Origin: Escherichia phage vB_Eco_mar004NP2
DNA: 64,000 nucleotides
Sequence record: NC_048205.1
Reading direction: 5' to 3' (one strand)
This document shows, one piece after another, positions 20,715 to 27,168 of this stretch. The notes beneath the pieces are model-generated. The model ran no database searches and was not told where the DNA came from. It was given only the letters and a program-made list of their open reading frames with translations. The position numbers were made by a program, and so were the translations under genes. Within the stretch, counting starts at the first letter, position 1. The number at the start of each line of letters is the position of its first letter.

Positions 20715-21162
20715 AACTCTATGAGTTAATAGAATTAACCATTTAGAGTTGCCACACAGAAGGTGTGGTGGTTCAGTAATTTAAAATTACTAACTTGTAG
20801 CGGAGGATACGGAGCGACAGGACAAGTTAATAAGTAATTTAATATAAATTGCTAGAAACATCACGAGACCTTCTGGCGGGGGCAAAGCTCTATATGAGAA
20901 CCCTGGGGGATCTTATATTTAAAATAAAAGTAAAACTTTTGACCATATAATTTACATTCAAGATGATACACCTGTTGCCGCTCATCTGCTAGGATGGCAC
21001 AACACTTTCTTCTAGACTCCTAAGTTTCTAGGAAAACTCTTACACTCTAGGGCAGTTTCTCTCCAACGTTACATATCCTAGGCCGGTTTAATACAGGGCG
21101 GTTATTGGGAGGGCGGTTATTTCTAGAAGACATTTTTCCAAAACACATTTCCAGAAATTACT

Positions 21163-21764
21163 GTCGGATTCGCACATTGTGTTTCTAGAAATTTATGGTC
21201 GGATTTGCACAATTGCCTAAGTTTTCATGGACACATAATCTCCTGAAAATGGCAGCATTATTTCGGGCCGAAGGCCCATGATTGCCTGAGTTTTTAGAGC
21301 CACAAGAATTTTCACTTGTCAAGCTATTTTGCCACCTTTAGCAAATAAAATTTTACTTTATCTCCACTAATCTCAAATTAACCCAAATCTTCTCAACTCT
21401 TCCCCCAAAAACGCAGCAAATCAGGCGTTGCACGCCACCCATGCTGCTCCTCCAGTTTCTCCACTTATTTTCTCTCGCTCTCTCATCTTCTCCTCAAACC
21501 TATACAATCACACACCCTCCAATCGAAGTCACAAAAATCTTGTCGGATTCGCACATCTTAATCCTAGAAAAACCGTGTCGGATTTGCACATATCCCACAG
21601 GATTCGAACGCAGTTCGAGATTGCTGGAGTTTTTGGGAAAATTCATTGTCGGATTTGCACACTATAAAAATTTTTGGGGTCGGATTTGCACACTACCAAA
21701 AATTGTCGGATTCGCACATACACGCCCGCGCGTAATCCATGGTGGCAAATGTCGGATTTGCACA
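21163..21764 (+). repeat. array of 8 direct repeats GTCGGATT(T/C)GCACA
   Basis: copies at 21163, 21198, 21542, 21577, 21648, 21679, 21705, 21751, all same orientation; candidate injection-stop or protein-binding array. Confidence 0.8.
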
Positions 21765-21796
21765 AAAGCGCAGGGCAATTGCCCTGCGCTAAATAC

Positions 21797-21991
21797 GAAT
21801 GATAATGAGAATCATTCGTATTTAAAAAGCGGAATAAGAATGATAATAGTTCTCATTTAGAAAGTGAAATGAGAATCAATCTCATTTAAGAAAGGGAATG
21901 AGAACTATTCAAAAAATGAAATGATTCTCATTTAAAAAATGGAATGATTATCGGTTAGATAGTGAAATGCGAATGATAATGATTCTCATTT
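21797..21991. promoter_or_regulatory. cluster of about 6 imperfect palindromes AATGAGAAT-N-ATTCTCATT (operator-like; resemble Fur-box halves)
   Basis: copies near 21804, 21845, 21866, 21897, 21918, 21971; further copies at 22328-22348 and 31322-31339. Confidence 0.6.
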
Positions 21992-22096
21992 AAGAATGGA
22001 AGCGAGAAACACTATTATTTAAGTTACCCACAGACTTATTAACAGCACGATTTGATTTGACAGAATCCTAGCCATTTTGAGGCGTTATCAACAGAC

Positions 22097-22105
22097 TTAT
22101 CCACA
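22097..22105 (+). promoter_or_regulatory. DnaA box TTATCCACA
   Basis: exact 9-mer consensus inside left IR arm. Confidence 0.6.
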
Positions 22106-22113
22106 GCTTATCC

Positions 22114-22133
22114 TACTGTATAAATATACAGTA
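22114..22133. promoter_or_regulatory. LexA (SOS) box-like palindrome TACTGTATAAATATACAGTA
   Basis: CTGT-N8-ACAG with AT-rich spacer, 19/20 match to E. coli consensus TACTGTATATATATACAGTA. Confidence 0.55.
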
Positions 22134-22389
22134 TTCCTACGCAGTGAATAATTCTAATATAGCGTTAAAACGTCCTAAATCGCATTCTAACGCGCTTAAT
22201 TTTGATGGGGATACTAAAACAAGGGCAAAATTGGAGGAGGCTTAAAAATTAGTTAGCTTGCTAACGATCACACAAGGCGACACGTAACACCCTAATCATT
22301 AGCAGGCTAACCATCACGGGCGCGGTTAAATGAGAATCACTCTCATTTGAGAATTGGGGGCACTCCCTGGTAGTTGCGCCCCGTTATTA

Positions 22390-22584
22390 TTAGTCTGGTA
22401 GTCGATGCGTGATCTTTTCCTCCTCCCCGTAGGAATCCACCAAATGCTGATAATAACCATCGTGATCATAAATCACTTTATCATACTCGCCACGCTCGAC
22501 CGCTTGTCGGTTTTCCGGCGTATCGGGCACGTAAAAAACATCAACCATTGTACTGATTTTGGTTACAACAATTTTATTGCTCAT
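22390..22584 (-). CDS. cassette gene 7, hypothetical acidic protein (64 aa from internal ATG)
   Basis: ORF track 22390..22614 uses TTG; ATG at 22584 has AGGGG RBS. Confidence 0.4.
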   Translation of the reverse strand: MSNKIVVTKISTMVDVFYVPDTPENRQAVERGEYDKVIYDHDGYYQHLVDSYGEEEKITHRLPD

Positions 22585-22686
22585 AATAACCCCTAGTAAA
22601 TATATTTTTGCCAATAGTGGCGAACGTTATCGCCACCAGCGGAATCATTTGCAGCCTCAACATTACCCGCGAAAATATATATAATC

Positions 22687-23031
22687 TCATTGCGCCACCT
22701 TTCGAAACGCTGTTTCAATACTATCCGCAGTGGATTGAATATACGCGCCTTTCATTATCAGGCGCTCGGTGCATATCTTGCGAAAAATATTAATAAAATC
22801 ATCTTCATTTTCTGCAATTAACGCCTCACCCATGACCTGAACGTCGCAAGATGCAAAGGTCAAAAATTGAAACGCTAGTTCACGGGCAACGACCGCATTG
22901 ATTTTATAATGCGCCTTGCCTTCATAAATATTAATAACGCCCTTATAAGCTGGGGAAAGCTGATTTAAGTAGTTTGCTAGTAATGCCGGACGGCAATTAG
23001 CAACAAAACGATTGCCTTCATAAATTACCAT
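22687..23031 (-). CDS. cassette gene 6, hypothetical protein, 114 aa
   Basis: ATG at 23031 with GGGGAG RBS, 1 nt after upstream stop; the track start 23070 is a TTG that would overlap the upstream gene. Confidence 0.45.
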   Translation of the reverse strand: MVIYEGNRFVANCRPALLANYLNQLSPAYKGVINIYEGKAHYKINAVVARELAFQFLTFASCDVQVMGEALIAENEDDFINIFRKICTERLIMKGAYIQSTADSIETAFRKVAQ

Positions 23032-23032
23032 T

Positions 23033-23245
23033 TTATAGCACTCCCCGAAACGCAGCGTAAAAGGTGGCAAAATGTTTAACTGTTTCAGCTATCACGTTGC
23101 CCCGTTTATCGAATTTTTTCTCGGTAACACGGAAGGCGTTTTTATTTCGCGCTACATATTCAATTTTACAATCTTCCCGCTCGAACGTGTTAACGTCCAC
23201 CAGCTTAAAGCCTTTTGAACGTGCAAGGGAAACGTTACGAATCAT
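23033..23245 (-). CDS. cassette gene 5, hypothetical basic protein, 70 aa
   Basis: ORF directly after small TM ORF. Confidence 0.45.
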   Translation of the reverse strand: MIRNVSLARSKGFKLVDVNTFEREDCKIEYVARNKNAFRVTEKKFDKRGNVIAETVKHFATFYAAFRGVL

Positions 23246-23247
23246 TT

Positions 23248-23397
23248 TTATTCTCCTTTACTAGTCATGCAGCCCAGCAGATAAGAAAATACAGCGATAC
23301 CCGCACCAATAATAACCGCGTGAACGCCGAAAGCTATTGCAAAAAGTGATAAAATAGCGCCCAAGATACCTGCTAGAATAGCTCGAAAAATAACCAT
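23248..23397 (-). CDS. cassette gene 4, small hydrophobic protein, 49 aa (not in ORF track)
   Basis: ATG after AGGAGG RBS; MVIFRAILAGILGAILSLFAIAFGVHAVIIGAGIAVFSYLLGCMTSKGE, two predicted TM helices. Confidence 0.35.
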   Translation of the reverse strand: MVIFRAILAGILGAILSLFAIAFGVHAVIIGAGIAVFSYLLGCMTSKGE

Positions 23398-23446
23398 TTG
23401 TGATAGCCTCCTAGTTATCGGGGGATATTATATCCCCCGTTATTAA

Positions 23447-23677
23447 TTACATTAAAACAATTTTTGCAGCTTGTTTTTTGGTGCAATGTTCCGCCTTCAG
23501 GGTATCCAGCAAAAAGCCAGCCGTTTGCTGATCGATTTTATCGGCGTTATATAGTTCCTGAATGGTATTATAGGTTTTAGCAATACCGAACTCCTGCACC
23601 ATTTCATAGATGACAGCACGATTAGATACCCAGCCTTGCGCGGTAAACAGATGACTAGCAGAAGAATAAGCAACCAT
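23447..23677 (-). CDS. cassette gene 3, hypothetical protein, 76 aa
   Basis: internal ATG at 23677 with GGAGG RBS preferred over track start 23710. Confidence 0.45.
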   Translation of the reverse strand: MVAYSSASHLFTAQGWVSNRAVIYEMVQEFGIAKTYNTIQELYNADKIDQQTAGFLLDTLKAEHCTKKQAAKIVLM

Positions 23678-23783
23678 TTTAAGCCTCCAAATTTTTGGGA
23701 AAATTTTCAACCGTCCTTAAACGGTGTAAAGGCATTATAACAAAAAAGGCCACCAATTATGGCGACCTTTACAAAACTTTACA

Positions 23784-24278
23784 TTAAACTACTTGTAATG
23801 TTTCAATATTGAAACATCGTTTCAATTCGTCATGCAAAACAGCGTATTCATCCCATCGGGTACTATCAGGGATATAAACAAGCTGTTTTAGTCGGTTTGC
23901 GTATATTACCGCTTTATTTCCGATTATTTCAGCGCCACCATATTTAATAATTAATTTCATGACGGAATTAATAGGATCGCCGCCGTTTACATATGTGCCG
24001 GATTTACTTAATTGATAATGATAAAGGCTTGCATATACATTATCATTCTCATACCATTCGCCCGTTTCCTCATCTTCATAGCCATCGCTACCAAAACGAG
24101 AAGCATTATCAACAGCCATTTCATGAGCGAAAGCGTCGAGATCCGTACCAGCAGGAACAAAATATTCCTCAGTATTCCCTTCACCGCAATAGCCAGTATG
24201 ACAATCGACCAAAATGATCATATCATGTTTAGCCTTGCTCACTTCCCCTAGCGAAAACCCATATTTTTCCTCAGCCAT
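23784..24278 (-). CDS. cassette gene 2, hypothetical acidic protein, 164 aa
   Basis: ATG with AGGAGG RBS; no recognisable motif. Confidence 0.55.
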   Translation of the reverse strand: MAEEKYGFSLGEVSKAKHDMIILVDCHTGYCGEGNTEEYFVPAGTDLDAFAHEMAVDNASRFGSDGYEDEETGEWYENDNVYASLYHYQLSKSGTYVNGGDPINSVMKLIIKYGGAEIIGNKAVIYANRLKQLVYIPDSTRWDEYAVLHDELKRCFNIETLQVV

Positions 24279-24343
24279 TTATTAGCCTCCTATTAATTAA
24301 TAAGGGAATAGTAAAGCGGGGAAACAATCCCCGCTAAATATTA

Positions 24344-25336
24344 TTACTCGCTTTCGGTGCTAGTGGTAAAAGTAGAAATATCGATACCTTTCACCATTTC
24401 ATCAATCATTTCAGCGATGTTAAAACTTTGCACCATTTCTAGCATTGCCGCTTCCATAGCTGCGCCTGCTACCGCTTTCGCTTTCTGGTTATTCGGGGCG
24501 TACTGGTCAACCGCTACGCTCAGCAGGTTAGCAATAACTACCCGACCAATCGGCGTATCAATATAACCTTTAATCATAAACGGCGCTTTTTTAGCCGCTA
24601 CTTTCGTGATTTGAGTCAATGCAATTTTGCCAGCTTCCAGTTTTGCAGCATTTACAACAGCGGATTTATTAGCGGCAACGATATTAGCGATCTTGGTCAT
24701 GGTATTATTTCCTTTGTTTTCAGTAGTTTGAGTGTTAACGCTTTGAGTGTTAGAATTTACAGCATGTTTTTCCGTGTTGTCAATAGGCTGATCTTCCTCC
24801 TTCCAGAAAGAAAAGCCCGCGCTTTCAATATCCCCATCATATACATAAGGGTACACTTCCGACGGTAACAAAAAATTACCGTTATCATCAAAGGCCATTA
24901 CAGCCGCGAAACGATACCCGTCACAATCCGACCGATTCCAGCCAACTGATAAATAACGCCAAAATGAATCAAGAAAATTTTCAATATCATAAAGATCATT
25001 GGGGTTGGCTTCATAATTTTCTATTGAAAAAACTTCTAAGCCTGCCCCAGTATCATAGGCTTTTACTGTGCTACCTTTTACGATTATGAAATCAGTATCC
25101 GGCCCTCGACTAGTGAGCAATTGATAATCTTGATTATATAAAACAAGCGTTGCCCCTTGTTTATATAACGGTAGAAAACTATTCATATCATAGGCATCGA
25201 AATCACCAAAAAAGTTTTGGTGAATAGTTTCAGCCTTGTTAATAAAATGTTTAATGCTGGTTGTTCTGCTACCGTCCAGCAGGTTACGCAGCGCACCTTT
25301 TAAGACGGTTGCGTTATCTGGTTTATATAGCCTCAT
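24344..25336 (-). CDS. cassette gene 1, hypothetical two-domain protein, 330 aa (Ala/Lys-rich C-terminal third)
   Basis: ATG with GAGGGAGG RBS; preceded by own promoter. Confidence 0.6.
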   Translation of the reverse strand: MRLYKPDNATVLKGALRNLLDGSRTTSIKHFINKAETIHQNFFGDFDAYDMNSFLPLYKQGATLVLYNQDYQLLTSRGPDTDFIIVKGSTVKAYDTGAGLEVFSIENYEANPNDLYDIENFLDSFWRYLSVGWNRSDCDGYRFAAVMAFDDNGNFLLPSEVYPYVYDGDIESAGFSFWKEEDQPIDNTEKHAVNSNTQSVNTQTTENKGNNTMTKIANIVAANKSAVVNAAKLEAGKIALTQITKVAAKKAPFMIKGYIDTPIGRVVIANLLSVAVDQYAPNNQKAKAVAGAAMEAAMLEMVQSFNIAEMIDEMVKGIDISTFTTSTESE

Positions 25337-25367
25337 TTGTTGGCCTCCCTCGTTAATCGGTGAGTGA

Positions 25368-25397
25368 ATGATAAAGGCAATTTTCTAGCATAGGCAA
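25368..25397 (-). promoter_or_regulatory. sigma70 promoter of antisense cassette (-35 TTGCCT, 18 bp, -10 TATCAT on - strand)
   Basis: hexamers read on reverse complement, AT-rich upstream element, about 30 nt upstream of gene 1 start. Confidence 0.5.
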
Positions 25398-25472
25398 ATA
25401 TTATTTTACCTTTTTATTTTCCTTGCCTAGCGCCTAGTTTTATGCTAACCGCGCAGCGGTACAGTAAAGAGC

Positions 25473-25510
25473 AAAACACGGTGAAGCCACCAGGGCGACG
25501 GGTGAAGGCT
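25473..25510. terminator. hairpin GTGAAGCC...GGCTTCAC, terminator-like on both strands
   Basis: stem with T-rich flank on either strand, between right IR and cassette promoter. Confidence 0.4.
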
Positions 25511-25601
25511 TCACTTTAATATTACCCCACCGCATTTAGCTCGTTAGAAAGCGTTTTAGGCCGCCTAAAATTGATTGCAGTTGTTAACACTACCTTTTTA
25601 C

Positions 25602-25712
25602 CCTGTATATTTATACAGTAGGATAACATGTGGATAAGTCTGTGGATAAGTCCTTATATCGTCGCCTATCGTGTCAAATCATTTTGTGCTGTTAATAAAC
25701 TTGTGGATAACT
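25602..25712. repeat. right arm of inverted repeat; contains LexA-like box CTGTATATTTATACAG (25603-25618) and three DnaA boxes
   Basis: TGTGGATAA at 25629, 25641, 25702 (reverse complement of TTATCCACA). Confidence 0.8.
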
Positions 25713-25994
25713 TAAATGATAGTGGTTCTCACTTAGGACGATAGTTTCTTATAGTTATTATTTCTATCGGTTACGATTTCTTATAATTATTATTTCTCAT
25801 TAATTTATAAGTATATTATATATCATGAAATAGTTAGTTGGCTAATGAGATTTTCCGTGATTAATAGTCTGCTAACAGTTCCGGCTGTTACAATCCACCA
25901 GCATGATTATCATCCTAGCAACTATTAGTCTGCTATCTTTCCGATGCATACTAACAAATAAAAGTCAATTAATTTATTTCATAAAATAAGTAGT

Positions 25995-26027
25995 TATCCA
26001 CTGGAAAATAAAAGTCAAGTGGATAAC
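25995..26027. promoter_or_regulatory. pair of DnaA-box-like sites (TTATCCACT / AGTGGATAA) in inverted orientation
   Basis: 8/9 matches to TTATCCACA; TTATCAACA also at 26061. Confidence 0.45.
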
Positions 26028-26482
26028 TAGGAAAATTTCATTTTTGCTTTTGGGGATAAGTTATCAACAAGGCTAGAATGCGCCTAAAACGCCCTATAAC
26101 GCGATGAAGTTTTTAGCCATGCCATTGCATTGCCTACCCTCGTTTATCGCTACCACGAGCTTTTTAGTTTTTGTCAAGTAGGGCAAGGCAAATATAAATG
26201 AAAAAATTACTTGCCAACCTGCTGGGTTTTATGGTATTCGCGCGCCCGTTTCCTTTAATTTTAGTGCGCCGCGCCCAGGTCGCCGCACGGTGTCCGGTGG
26301 CATTTTGTCTTTACGTTTCTTTACAAAAATAAGGTTGCGCCATTTTTACTATTTGCTATTATTTATCTCGTAGGGCGGCAATGACGAACTACACGGCGGG
26401 AAGTTTACCGCCGCGCTCTTTAAAAATTGGGTACATCTTAAAGTCTATCGGCGGTAAACTTATATTATAAGGAATCGCAGAT

Positions 26483-26686
26483 ATGAAACAAACTTTATTG
26501 ATCACTGGTAAACCAGCTAAAAAATTAGATGGTACTACTAAAAAATTGTTGACAATAGCCCAGCAATCCGTAAAATACCGATTTGCTCAGTACAAGAAAG
26601 GCCGCCAGCAGGGTTTAGAAATGATCTGGCGTAATATTATGATCGACCTGAAAGAAAATCATAAAAAACTGCAAAAAACAGTTTGA
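26483..26686 (+). CDS. pre-early small basic protein, 67 aa
   Basis: ATG after TAAGGAATCGCAG; host-like codon usage. Confidence 0.45.
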   Translation: MKQTLLITGKPAKKLDGTTKKLLTIAQQSVKYRFAQYKKGRQQGLEMIWRNIMIDLKENHKKLQKTV

Positions 26687-26916
26687 CACCCTAGCCGATA
26701 GGCTTTAAGATGTACCCAGTTCGATGAGAGCGATAACTTGATACAATTTGACGGTTAGGTGATTCCCCATAAATCATCCTGCCCCCTAACTGGGATATAG
26801 CAGCCTGCGTGGAGTTCCTTAAATTGATTATAGCGGTGAGCGGATTGTTGCTTATTACCTGCTACTTTCTAGCAGGTAATGCGGAACAATCCCCTAAATA
26901 ACTTGGAGTTTATACT

Positions 26917-27168
26917 ATGCAAAACGTTATTACCGCGCCTAAAATTGGTCAATCCGTTTTTATTCCTTTCGTTACTAAAACGGATGAACTAACCGGAAAA
27001 GCCGAACGTATTAAAGGTGCGGCGCTTATGCCGTTTGATACAATCGACGCGGTATACGCTGAAAATGAACGTAGTAACAACGGCAAAACCGTTTTTAGCG
27101 TTCGCGTTAAATCCGGCGACGTTGTAAAGGTTGTACAGCGTAACGAAAAATGGGAAGCTGTAGCGTAA
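26917..27168 (+). CDS. pre-early hypothetical protein, 83 aa
   Basis: conserved TIR TTGGAGTTTATACT-ATG; followed by hairpin. Confidence 0.5.
   Translation: MQNVITAPKIGQSVFIPFVTKTDELTGKAERIKGAALMPFDTIDAVYAENERSNNGKTVFSVRVKSGDVVKVVQRNEKWEAVA

Follow-up and report, generated by a model that had tools for sequence, protein, structure and literature searches.

Inverted repeats of a T5-like phage join paired DnaA boxes to a conserved LexA-like palindrome and flank a cassette inverted between lineages

In the 64-kb stretch of Escherichia phage vB_Eco_mar004NP2 analyzed here (sequence record NC_048205.1; referred to below as the window), a leftward pre-early gene cassette is bracketed by the two arms of a long inverted repeat (IR). 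Each arm carries two double DnaA boxes, the inner pair of which is fused through the linker GGTTATCC to a putative near-consensus LexA operator. The comparisons show that the two arms correspond, in this phage, to the IR D'-spacer-IR C' / IR C-spacer-IR D pair that T5-like phages conserve in their terminal repeat. On balance, and with modest confidence, we interpret them as landing pads for the host proteins DnaA and LexA that would help to hold or stall the first-step DNA, the same T5 repeat pair having also been a recombination substrate in the past.

The repeat pair, its DnaA boxes, and the idea that DnaA anchors the DNA are already published (Davison 2020, bioRxiv 10.1101/866236), and the pair is also annotated in the GenBank record AY587007. 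What appears to be unreported is the reading of the T5 palindrome D as a conserved LexA site, its position ~180 bp from any predicted promoter, and the flipping of the cassette between lineages. Why the DNA of T5 stops after 8% of it has entered has been an open question for more than 50 years, and membrane-bound DnaA is the only molecular proposal that we have found. Since dnaA is essential, this proposal is hard to test. All T5-like phages examined have the near-consensus LexA site fused to the DnaA boxes, which it equals in conservation, and this suggests a second candidate host factor. As lexA(Def) sulA hosts allow LexA to be removed genetically, a test of the idea would cost little. Should LexA neither bind nor matter, the finding would reduce to a re-description of a known, annotated repeat. 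Taken as a whole, the analysis adds to a known element one new and easily testable host-factor lead, LexA, and a mapped inversion, while the function of the arms is put forward as a hypothesis.

A LexA-like palindrome fused to double DnaA boxes

The initial annotation of this stretch had placed near-consensus LexA sites at the inner ends of both arms, and the present analysis confirms them. The left palindrome, TACTGTATAAATATACAGTA, differs from the consensus TACTGTATATATATACAGTA at a single position. The right one, CCCTGTATATTTATACAGTA, has three mismatches, all of which are located in the outer TA dinucleotides and the centre, the outer TA being lost on the cassette side. These are the only two matches to the LexA consensus with three or fewer mismatches in the window, where 0.01 would be expected, and none of 100 shuffled sequences reaches two. 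The shorter pattern CTGT-N8-ACAG occurs three times in the window, two of the occurrences being those at the inner ends of the arms. The LexA consensus is quoted in the literature as TACTG(TA)5CAGTA (PMC6015884), and the arm palindromes follow this pattern, with CTG and CAG 10 nt apart. The left palindrome is, moreover, identical over its 20 bp to palindrome D of T5 (AY587007 9330-9349).

The palindrome was surveyed in 94 arm sites from 48 loci (48 left-arm and 46 right-arm copies). The CTG and CAG triplets are intact in 89 of these sites, from Escherichia to Vibrio phages, including all 48 left-arm copies, and positions 2-5, 12, 16, and 17 never vary. Conservation along the whole arm was scored as the majority-base frequency over 28 aligned arms, which come from 14 phages. 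It amounts to 0.90 in the second DnaA pair, 0.95 in the GGTTATCC linker, and 0.92 in the palindrome, compared to 0.55 in the centre and 0.60 in the inner flank, and it collapses directly past the LexA box. The proposal that the arms are non-coding modules of host-regulator sites is supported, and these sites are kept far better than the genes that they bracket. The left-arm region (window 21995-22140) is present in 546 phage records, and the module survives in phages of Klebsiella, Erwinia, Pectobacterium, and Vibrio; in the Vibrio phages only the DnaA pair and the palindrome are still recognisable, with 84-86% identity.

Two observations concern the variation of the palindrome. Its central dinucleotide (22123-22124 and 25610-25611) is AA in 70 and TT in 24 of the 94 sites, never AT or TA, and all four left/right combinations of AA and TT occur among the phages. 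It therefore seems that the quasi-palindrome is turned round as a whole, by recombination between the arms or by small inversions, and not by point mutation. The T5-like phages of Vibrio follow this design more loosely, as seen in phage Wyman (450-645 and 3320-3755), where an inverted pair ~3.06 kb apart brackets the leftward pre-early genes. The left side of this pair has three LexA-like palindromes, while the right side has one that is half-degenerate and lies outside rather than inside the DnaA boxes.

The exact 20-mer TACTGTATAAATATACAGTA is also found on the E. coli plasmid pTB212 (NZ_CP033252.1, 2508-2527). There it lies 17 nt 5' of the start codon of a HumD-family gene (UmuD-like, a translesion-polymerase subunit), the last 7 nt being a GGGGCGA ribosome-binding site, and its position is the classical one of an SOS gene. 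A blastn search of plasmids with window 22080-22140 returned only bare 20-23-mer matches. Replicons of Ralstonia and Cupriavidus carry the same 23-mer in stretches without annotation, and these matches are not tied to any SOS gene. The same query gave no match in 5,426 E. coli genomes, a database whose size makes the search uninformative for a 20-mer. The possibility that the module was borrowed from the host chromosome was considered and rejected.

Perfect TTATCCACA DnaA boxes occur four times in the window, where 0.77 would be expected, and all four are in the arms, at 22097 (+) and at 25629, 25641, and 25702 (-). The initial annotation had counted one box on the left and three on the right, which holds for perfect boxes only. 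When boxes with one or two mismatches are included, each arm has two pairs in the same orientation with a spacing of 3 bp. Chromatin immunoprecipitation sequencing in E. coli has shown that DnaA prefers in vivo such box pairs, 2-3 bp apart, termed the double DnaA box (Stringer et al. 2024, PMC11317965). All four pairs of the arms agree with this description in their sequence, having the same orientation, the 3-bp spacing, and in each case one box with at most one mismatch to TTATCCACA. The arm layout is thus the pair form preferred in vivo, and the case for predicted DnaA binding is now stronger than when it was first proposed.

At 22106-22116 and 25618-25628, the invariant linker GGTTATCC additionally forms a third, partial DnaA box, TTATCCTAC, located 2 bp past the second pair. 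This partial box shares 3 nt with the beginning of the LexA box, so that bound DnaA and LexA might compete or cooperate, as reported for uvrB/DARS1 (PMC6015884). A perfect TTGACA hexamer at 22057-22062 is almost invariant in the spacer of all 28 aligned arms; by inspection of the alignment, no -10 element follows it at 16-18 nt.

Identity with the T5 repeat pair and inversion of the cassette

The repeat search gives one long inverted repeat pair, with arms of 132 nt that are 80% complementary and separated by 3471 nt. The inverted repeat with a diverged centre that had been noticed earlier is therefore real, the arms extending ~21 nt further outward than 22021 and 25712. In the pairwise alignment of the arms, the ends are near-identical and a centre of ~23 nt (about 22062-22084) is diverged.

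The region 21000-27000 of the window has 98.3% identity to Salmonella phage PMBT29 and maps, in reverse orientation, onto the left terminal repeat of BF23 and T5; by these matches the 64-kb window is that of a T5-like phage (Demerecviridae). Identity to T5 amounts to 90.4% for the left-arm region (21995-22140), where all 146 bases are aligned, and to 74% for the right arm. Both arms align gaplessly to IR D'/C', IR C/D, and palindrome D as annotated in AY587007. The left arm falls within the feature labelled "injection stop signal" in the T5 record AY692264, in line with the earlier suggestion that the segment be aligned against the T5 injection-stop region. In T5 the left arm ends ~200 bp ahead of the 7.9% nick and shear point, the nick being annotated at AY587007 9661-9668, ~200 bp beyond the arm.

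The right arm is non-coding and separates the cassette operon, which is read leftwards, from the A2/A1 operon, which is read rightwards. It maps, by synteny, between the T5p010 homologue and the A2 side, and is flanked by predicted divergent pre-early promoters according to the BF23 and T5 annotations. The window thus has what defines the T5 pair, namely a homologous inverted pair of ~131 bp in the terminal repeat, with paired DnaA boxes, and, by synteny, one copy at the injection-stop region and the other upstream of the T5p010-type operon. This is in agreement with the description of a 131-bp pair with a 52-bp spacer in 25 T5-like phages, with eight DnaA or near-DnaA boxes paired 3 bp apart, where membrane-bound DnaA was proposed to hold the entering DNA (Davison 2020, bioRxiv 10.1101/866236). 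Papers that appeared afterwards restate this description and note the lack of experiments.

The cassette between the arms does not have the same orientation throughout the family. The T5p010-like protein of 330 aa adjoins the right arm in the window and is read leftwards. In Klebsiella phage Kpn2-P1, its homologue (37% identity, E = 1e-43) lies beside the left arm and is read rightwards. The tblastn map gives the order o330+, o164+, o127+ in the loci L039, L040, L045, and L048, and likewise in My1 once its locus is flipped, compared to o127-, o164-, o330- in the window, T5, L003, L036, L037, and Erwinia phage KEY. Outside the cassette the loci are collinear in both orientations, with the early gene to the left and o67, o83, A2, o65, and A1 to the right. 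The comparison shows that the cassette is mirror-inverted in the Sugarlandvirus-type Klebsiella phages and My1, i.e., in Klebsiella and Pectobacterium relatives, and that it was inverted once in the history of the family. The orientation tracks the clade, all Escherichia/Salmonella-type loci being one way and all Klebsiella-type loci together with My1 the other; among close relatives there is none with the inverted cassette.

The 90-nt inner flanks moved with the cassette, the left-inner flank of the T5 type having a score of 34-46 against the right-inner flank of the Klebsiella type and of 17-32 against its left-inner flank, while the arm spacers stayed in place. This puts the crossover inside the module made of the DnaA pair and the LexA box. 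In no other stretch do the two arms come close to identity, and it is these inner 45-50 bp that have served as a substrate for homologous recombination. On the evolutionary scale, with a mirrored cassette between collinear flanks, the earlier suggestion of a recombination or inversion substrate is accordingly upheld. The inversion also marks the ~50-bp module as the part of the arms that is kept nearly identical between the copies, and thereby points to the bases to mutate first.

Erwinia phage KEY (8131-8220 and 12170-12262) has the T5-type gene orientation, yet its 90-nt inner flanks resemble those of the Klebsiella type. Such a mismatch would be explained by another exchange, nested in the first, whose breakpoints lay a short way inward of the arms.

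The coordinates of the arms, their sites, and the bracketed genes are collected in Table 1.

Table 1. Coordinates, in the window, of the repeat arms, their predicted protein-binding sites, and features of the cassette (a dot marks features given without strand)
Feature	Position	Strand	Description
Left arm	22000-22131	.	nearest the second-entering DNA; orthologue of T5 IR D'-spacer-IR C' (AY587007 9332-9462)
Double DnaA box 1, left arm	22024-22044	+	TTACCCACA-gac-TTATTAACA; 3-bp spacing; column conservation 0.81
Double DnaA box 2, left arm	22085-22105	+	TTATCAACA-gac-TTATCCACA; conservation 0.90
Linker after left double box 2	22106-22113	+	GCTTATCC; conservation 0.95
LexA-consensus-like palindrome	22114-22133	.	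TACTGTATAAATATACAGTA; 19/20 to consensus; inner end of left arm
Pre-early accessory cassette	22390-25336	-	seven open reading frames, leftward
Abasic-site-nicking endonuclease homologue	23033-23245	-	70 aa; PHROG: nicks abasic sites made by host uracil glycosylase
T5p010-like DUF7566 protein	24344-25336	-	330 aa; adjoins right arm
Second palindrome copy	25601-25620	.	CCCTGTATATTTATACAGTA; 17/20; inner end of right arm
Right arm	25603-25734	.	orthologue of T5 IR C-spacer-IR D (AY587007 6022-6152)
Double DnaA box 2, right arm	25629-25649	-	two perfect TTATCCACA, 3 bp apart
Double DnaA box 1, right arm	25690-25710	-	TTATCCACA-agt-TTATTAACA

With a member of the abasic-site endonuclease family among its genes, the cassette carries host-takeover and anti-host functions, not something that the repeats need for their structure. 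To the right of the arms, the + strand encodes homologues of A2 (135 aa) and A1 (554 aa). A transposon was also considered as the origin of the segment and rejected, since no transposase or recombinase family was found among the open reading frames of the cassette and its neighbours. In addition, the outer ends of the arms are copies of a local GTGAGAA-CACT-ATTTAAG repeat family and not element termini.

Several further repeats surround the arms. At least 10 copies of TGTCGGATT(C/T)GCACA are located at 21156-21771 with irregular spacing; they look like protein-binding sites and, by their position, probably correspond to the T5 "direct repeat D" array beyond the 7.9% nick. Palindromic units of the form AATGAGAATCA-TCTCATTTAAG are repeated beside the left arm (21797-22020), with one copy on the cassette side (22325-22353) and one that constitutes the outer end of the right arm (25711-25734). 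The outer arm block GTGAGAAACACTATCATTTAAG belongs to the same family. The motif CCTAAAACGC-TTCTAACG is inverted just inside both arms (22160-22200 and 25535-25561) and recurs to the right of the right arm (26082-26108), so that the repeat architecture extends weakly past the 132-nt arms. This motif is probably the inverted repeat B/B' of T5.

Possible roles of the arms

In the mechanism that we propose, each arm would act in cis as a landing pad, on which host proteins already in the cell at the time of DNA entry would bind. The left arm is among the last DNA inside the cell at the first-step pause, which makes helping to hold or stall this DNA the most likely role of a DnaA/LexA complex formed on it. 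Such a nucleoprotein complex could help to stall the first-step DNA without new protein synthesis. The stall needs none (Davison 2020, bioRxiv 10.1101/866236), which fits abundant, pre-existing host proteins. The promoter-side arm might be its partner, for instance if contacts between DnaA molecules bridged the 3.5-kb loop. LexA would be displaced by the phage, with A1/A2 as candidates, and not by the SOS response.

The initial annotation had also raised SOS-coupled control of transcription, for which we find no support. In BF23 and T5, the LexA boxes are ~180 bp from the nearest predicted pre-early promoter, so the palindrome is not a classical operator. A scan for promoters and terminators in 21000-26600 gave one promoter-like match, TTAACA-16-TATATT, that overlaps the right LexA box, and its -35 element is in the inner flank and is not conserved in T5. 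An SOS-regulated promoter was rejected on these grounds. The same scan found no terminator at either arm; a terminator hairpin was likewise rejected, the palindrome being AT-rich, with a 2-nt centre and no T-run after it.

Another possibility that was considered is that cleavage of LexA, set off by the A1-driven degradation of DNA, acts as a timer for the restart of the transfer. For one T5-like phage with the arm, the recorded host is E. coli DH5a. This strain is recA1, so that LexA cleavage cannot be required for growth. The timer was therefore rejected as a requirement, and also because A2 mutants degrade the host DNA and yet do not transfer the rest of the genome (Davison 2020, bioRxiv 10.1101/866236). 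With neither a promoter operator nor a need for cleavage, LexA, if bound, would act as an architectural protein or a roadblock.

A number of points weigh against the landing-pad interpretation. We found no report in the literature of DnaA or LexA binding to the arms of T5-like phages, and the authors of the BF23 study state that experimental studies of these sites are lacking. No link between LexA and T5-like phages was found either, including in the Davison preprint and in recent T5 and BF23 papers, an earlier mention in the older T5 papers remaining possible. Judging from its position ~180 bp from the predicted pre-early promoters, the usual reason for a LexA box is missing. The right-arm copy is degenerate in Tequintavirus and Epseptimavirus, with GG in place of the outer TA in 39 of the 46 right-arm copies and CAA in place of CAG in 5 sites, and two good LexA sites are thus not needed. 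Some T5-like phages ("Type 4") do not have the promoter-side arm (Davison 2020, bioRxiv 10.1101/866236), which argues against an obligatory two-arm loop. We also list here the ejection of the whole T5 genome into FhuA proteoliposomes in vitro (a report cited by Davison 2020, bioRxiv 10.1101/866236), although this fits a need for a host factor without naming it. Finally, a phage protein found throughout the family, e.g., an A2 dimer, could equally explain the conservation of the palindrome.

This last point leads to an alternative that we consider unlikely, namely that palindrome D is the site of a pre-early phage protein, with the likeness to LexA sites being a coincidence or mimicry. The protein would be either a dimeric DNA-binding A2 or an A1/A2 nuclease by which the stalled DNA is cut or set free, as suggested by Davison for palindromes in this region. 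The A2 and A1 genes lie at a distance of 1.5-4 kb and are kept in all palindrome-bearing loci, A2 is listed in PHROGs as a DNA-binding protein, and the palindrome is not at a promoter. Davison (bioRxiv 10.1101/866236) treats PalD only as a candidate cleavage site of A1/A2. However, a match of 19/20 to the LexA consensus, including the outer TA, is very unlikely to arise by chance, and the box stays at the host consensus in the Vibrio phages while A2 falls to 42% identity. It is, in addition, fused to the sites of another host protein, DnaA, while A2 has no known sequence specificity and a structure search found no solved structure that matches it. The substitutions at positions 6 and 15 (T6->G in 4 sites and A15->C in 2) are those that LexA tolerates, both being common variants in real E. 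coli SOS boxes.

Somewhat less probable still, in our estimate, is that the arms are transcription boundary elements, i.e., DnaA/LexA roadblocks or insulators at the ends of the cassette, or that they tune the pre-early promoters from a distance according to the SOS or DnaA state of the host. The roadblocks would stop RNA polymerase on its way out of the cassette operon into the envelope-threaded DNA or into the divergent promoter region. The arms do bracket exactly one transcription unit, with the right arm between divergent predicted promoters, and the cassette kept its own promoter-side flank when it was inverted. DnaA-box complexes have also reportedly been found to block elongating RNA polymerase (Schaefer and Messer, on asnC). 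However, in BF23 and T5 the operon already ends at predicted rho-independent terminators, ~110-120 bp short of the left arm. The distance of the boxes from the predicted promoters and the non-conserved -35 element of the single overlapping match, both described above, also speak against such a role.

The interpretation of the arms as landing pads can also be stated in a bolder form, in which LexA and DnaA are the pre-existing host proteins that arrest or anchor T5-type DNA at the injection stop signal. In this form, palindrome D would be a LexA operator, the stop signal would have its functional core in the ~50-bp module of double box, TTATCC, and LexA box, and A1/A2 would restart the transfer by removing the complex. 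We regard the complete set of these statements as a long shot.

A DnaA-dependent replication origin, or a DnaA-handling site used after the second-step transfer, with the box clusters beside iteron-like repeats and AT-rich DNA, is very unlikely. There are four double DnaA boxes per terminal repeat and dense families of direct repeats directly to the left of the arm (21156-21771 and 21797-22020). However, the T5 origins have been mapped near the middle of the genome (cited by Davison 2020, bioRxiv 10.1101/866236), and the replication genes are not expressed during the first-step transfer (Davison 2020, bioRxiv 10.1101/866236). Moreover, the second arm is located among promoters and not beside iterons, and the LexA box would be left unexplained.

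A programmed invertible switch, with the arms as crossover sites that flip the cassette during infection, is already largely refuted and hardly tenable. The genes do lie between inverted repeats, and the family does have the cassette in either direction. However, the orientation follows the clade, no recombinase family was found in the cassette and its neighbours, and an artificial inverted junction is spanned by none of the best 15 of 431 related phage records, all of which start at query base 121-122, where the arm has its outer limit. Of the earlier suggestion of an inversion substrate, the part that implied active inversion is thus not retained.

Comparison with known systems

The closest known system is the IR pair of T5 itself (AY587007; "IRCspacerIRD" and "IRD'spacerIRC'" in bioRxiv 10.1101/866236). 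The pair described here is its orthologue and does not differ from it in structure: the position in the terminal repeat, the length of 131-132 bp, the spacer, and the two DnaA-box pairs per arm with members 3 bp apart are all the same. The differences are that the present phage has four perfect TTATCCACA boxes and that it does not have the HNH gene that T5 carries beside the right arm.

The SOS boxes of gammaproteobacteria, such as those upstream of umuD/humD, have the same 20-bp TACTG-(TA)5-CAGTA palindrome with CTG and CAG 10 nt apart. In contrast to these, the phage palindrome overlaps no promoter and has no gene directly downstream that it could repress, and it is present in two inverted copies, separated by 3.5 kb, in the genome of a virulent phage that, according to published T5 work, destroys the host chromosome within minutes.

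The pairs of boxes 2-3 bp apart are shared with the double DnaA boxes of E. coli (PMC11317965). The arms also resemble the uvrB promoter and DARS1 of E. coli (PMC6015884), in which DnaA boxes abut or overlap a LexA box and the two proteins can interfere with each other. Unlike in the E. coli DnaA/LexA control regions, however, the boxes of one arm all point in the same direction and lie away from promoters.

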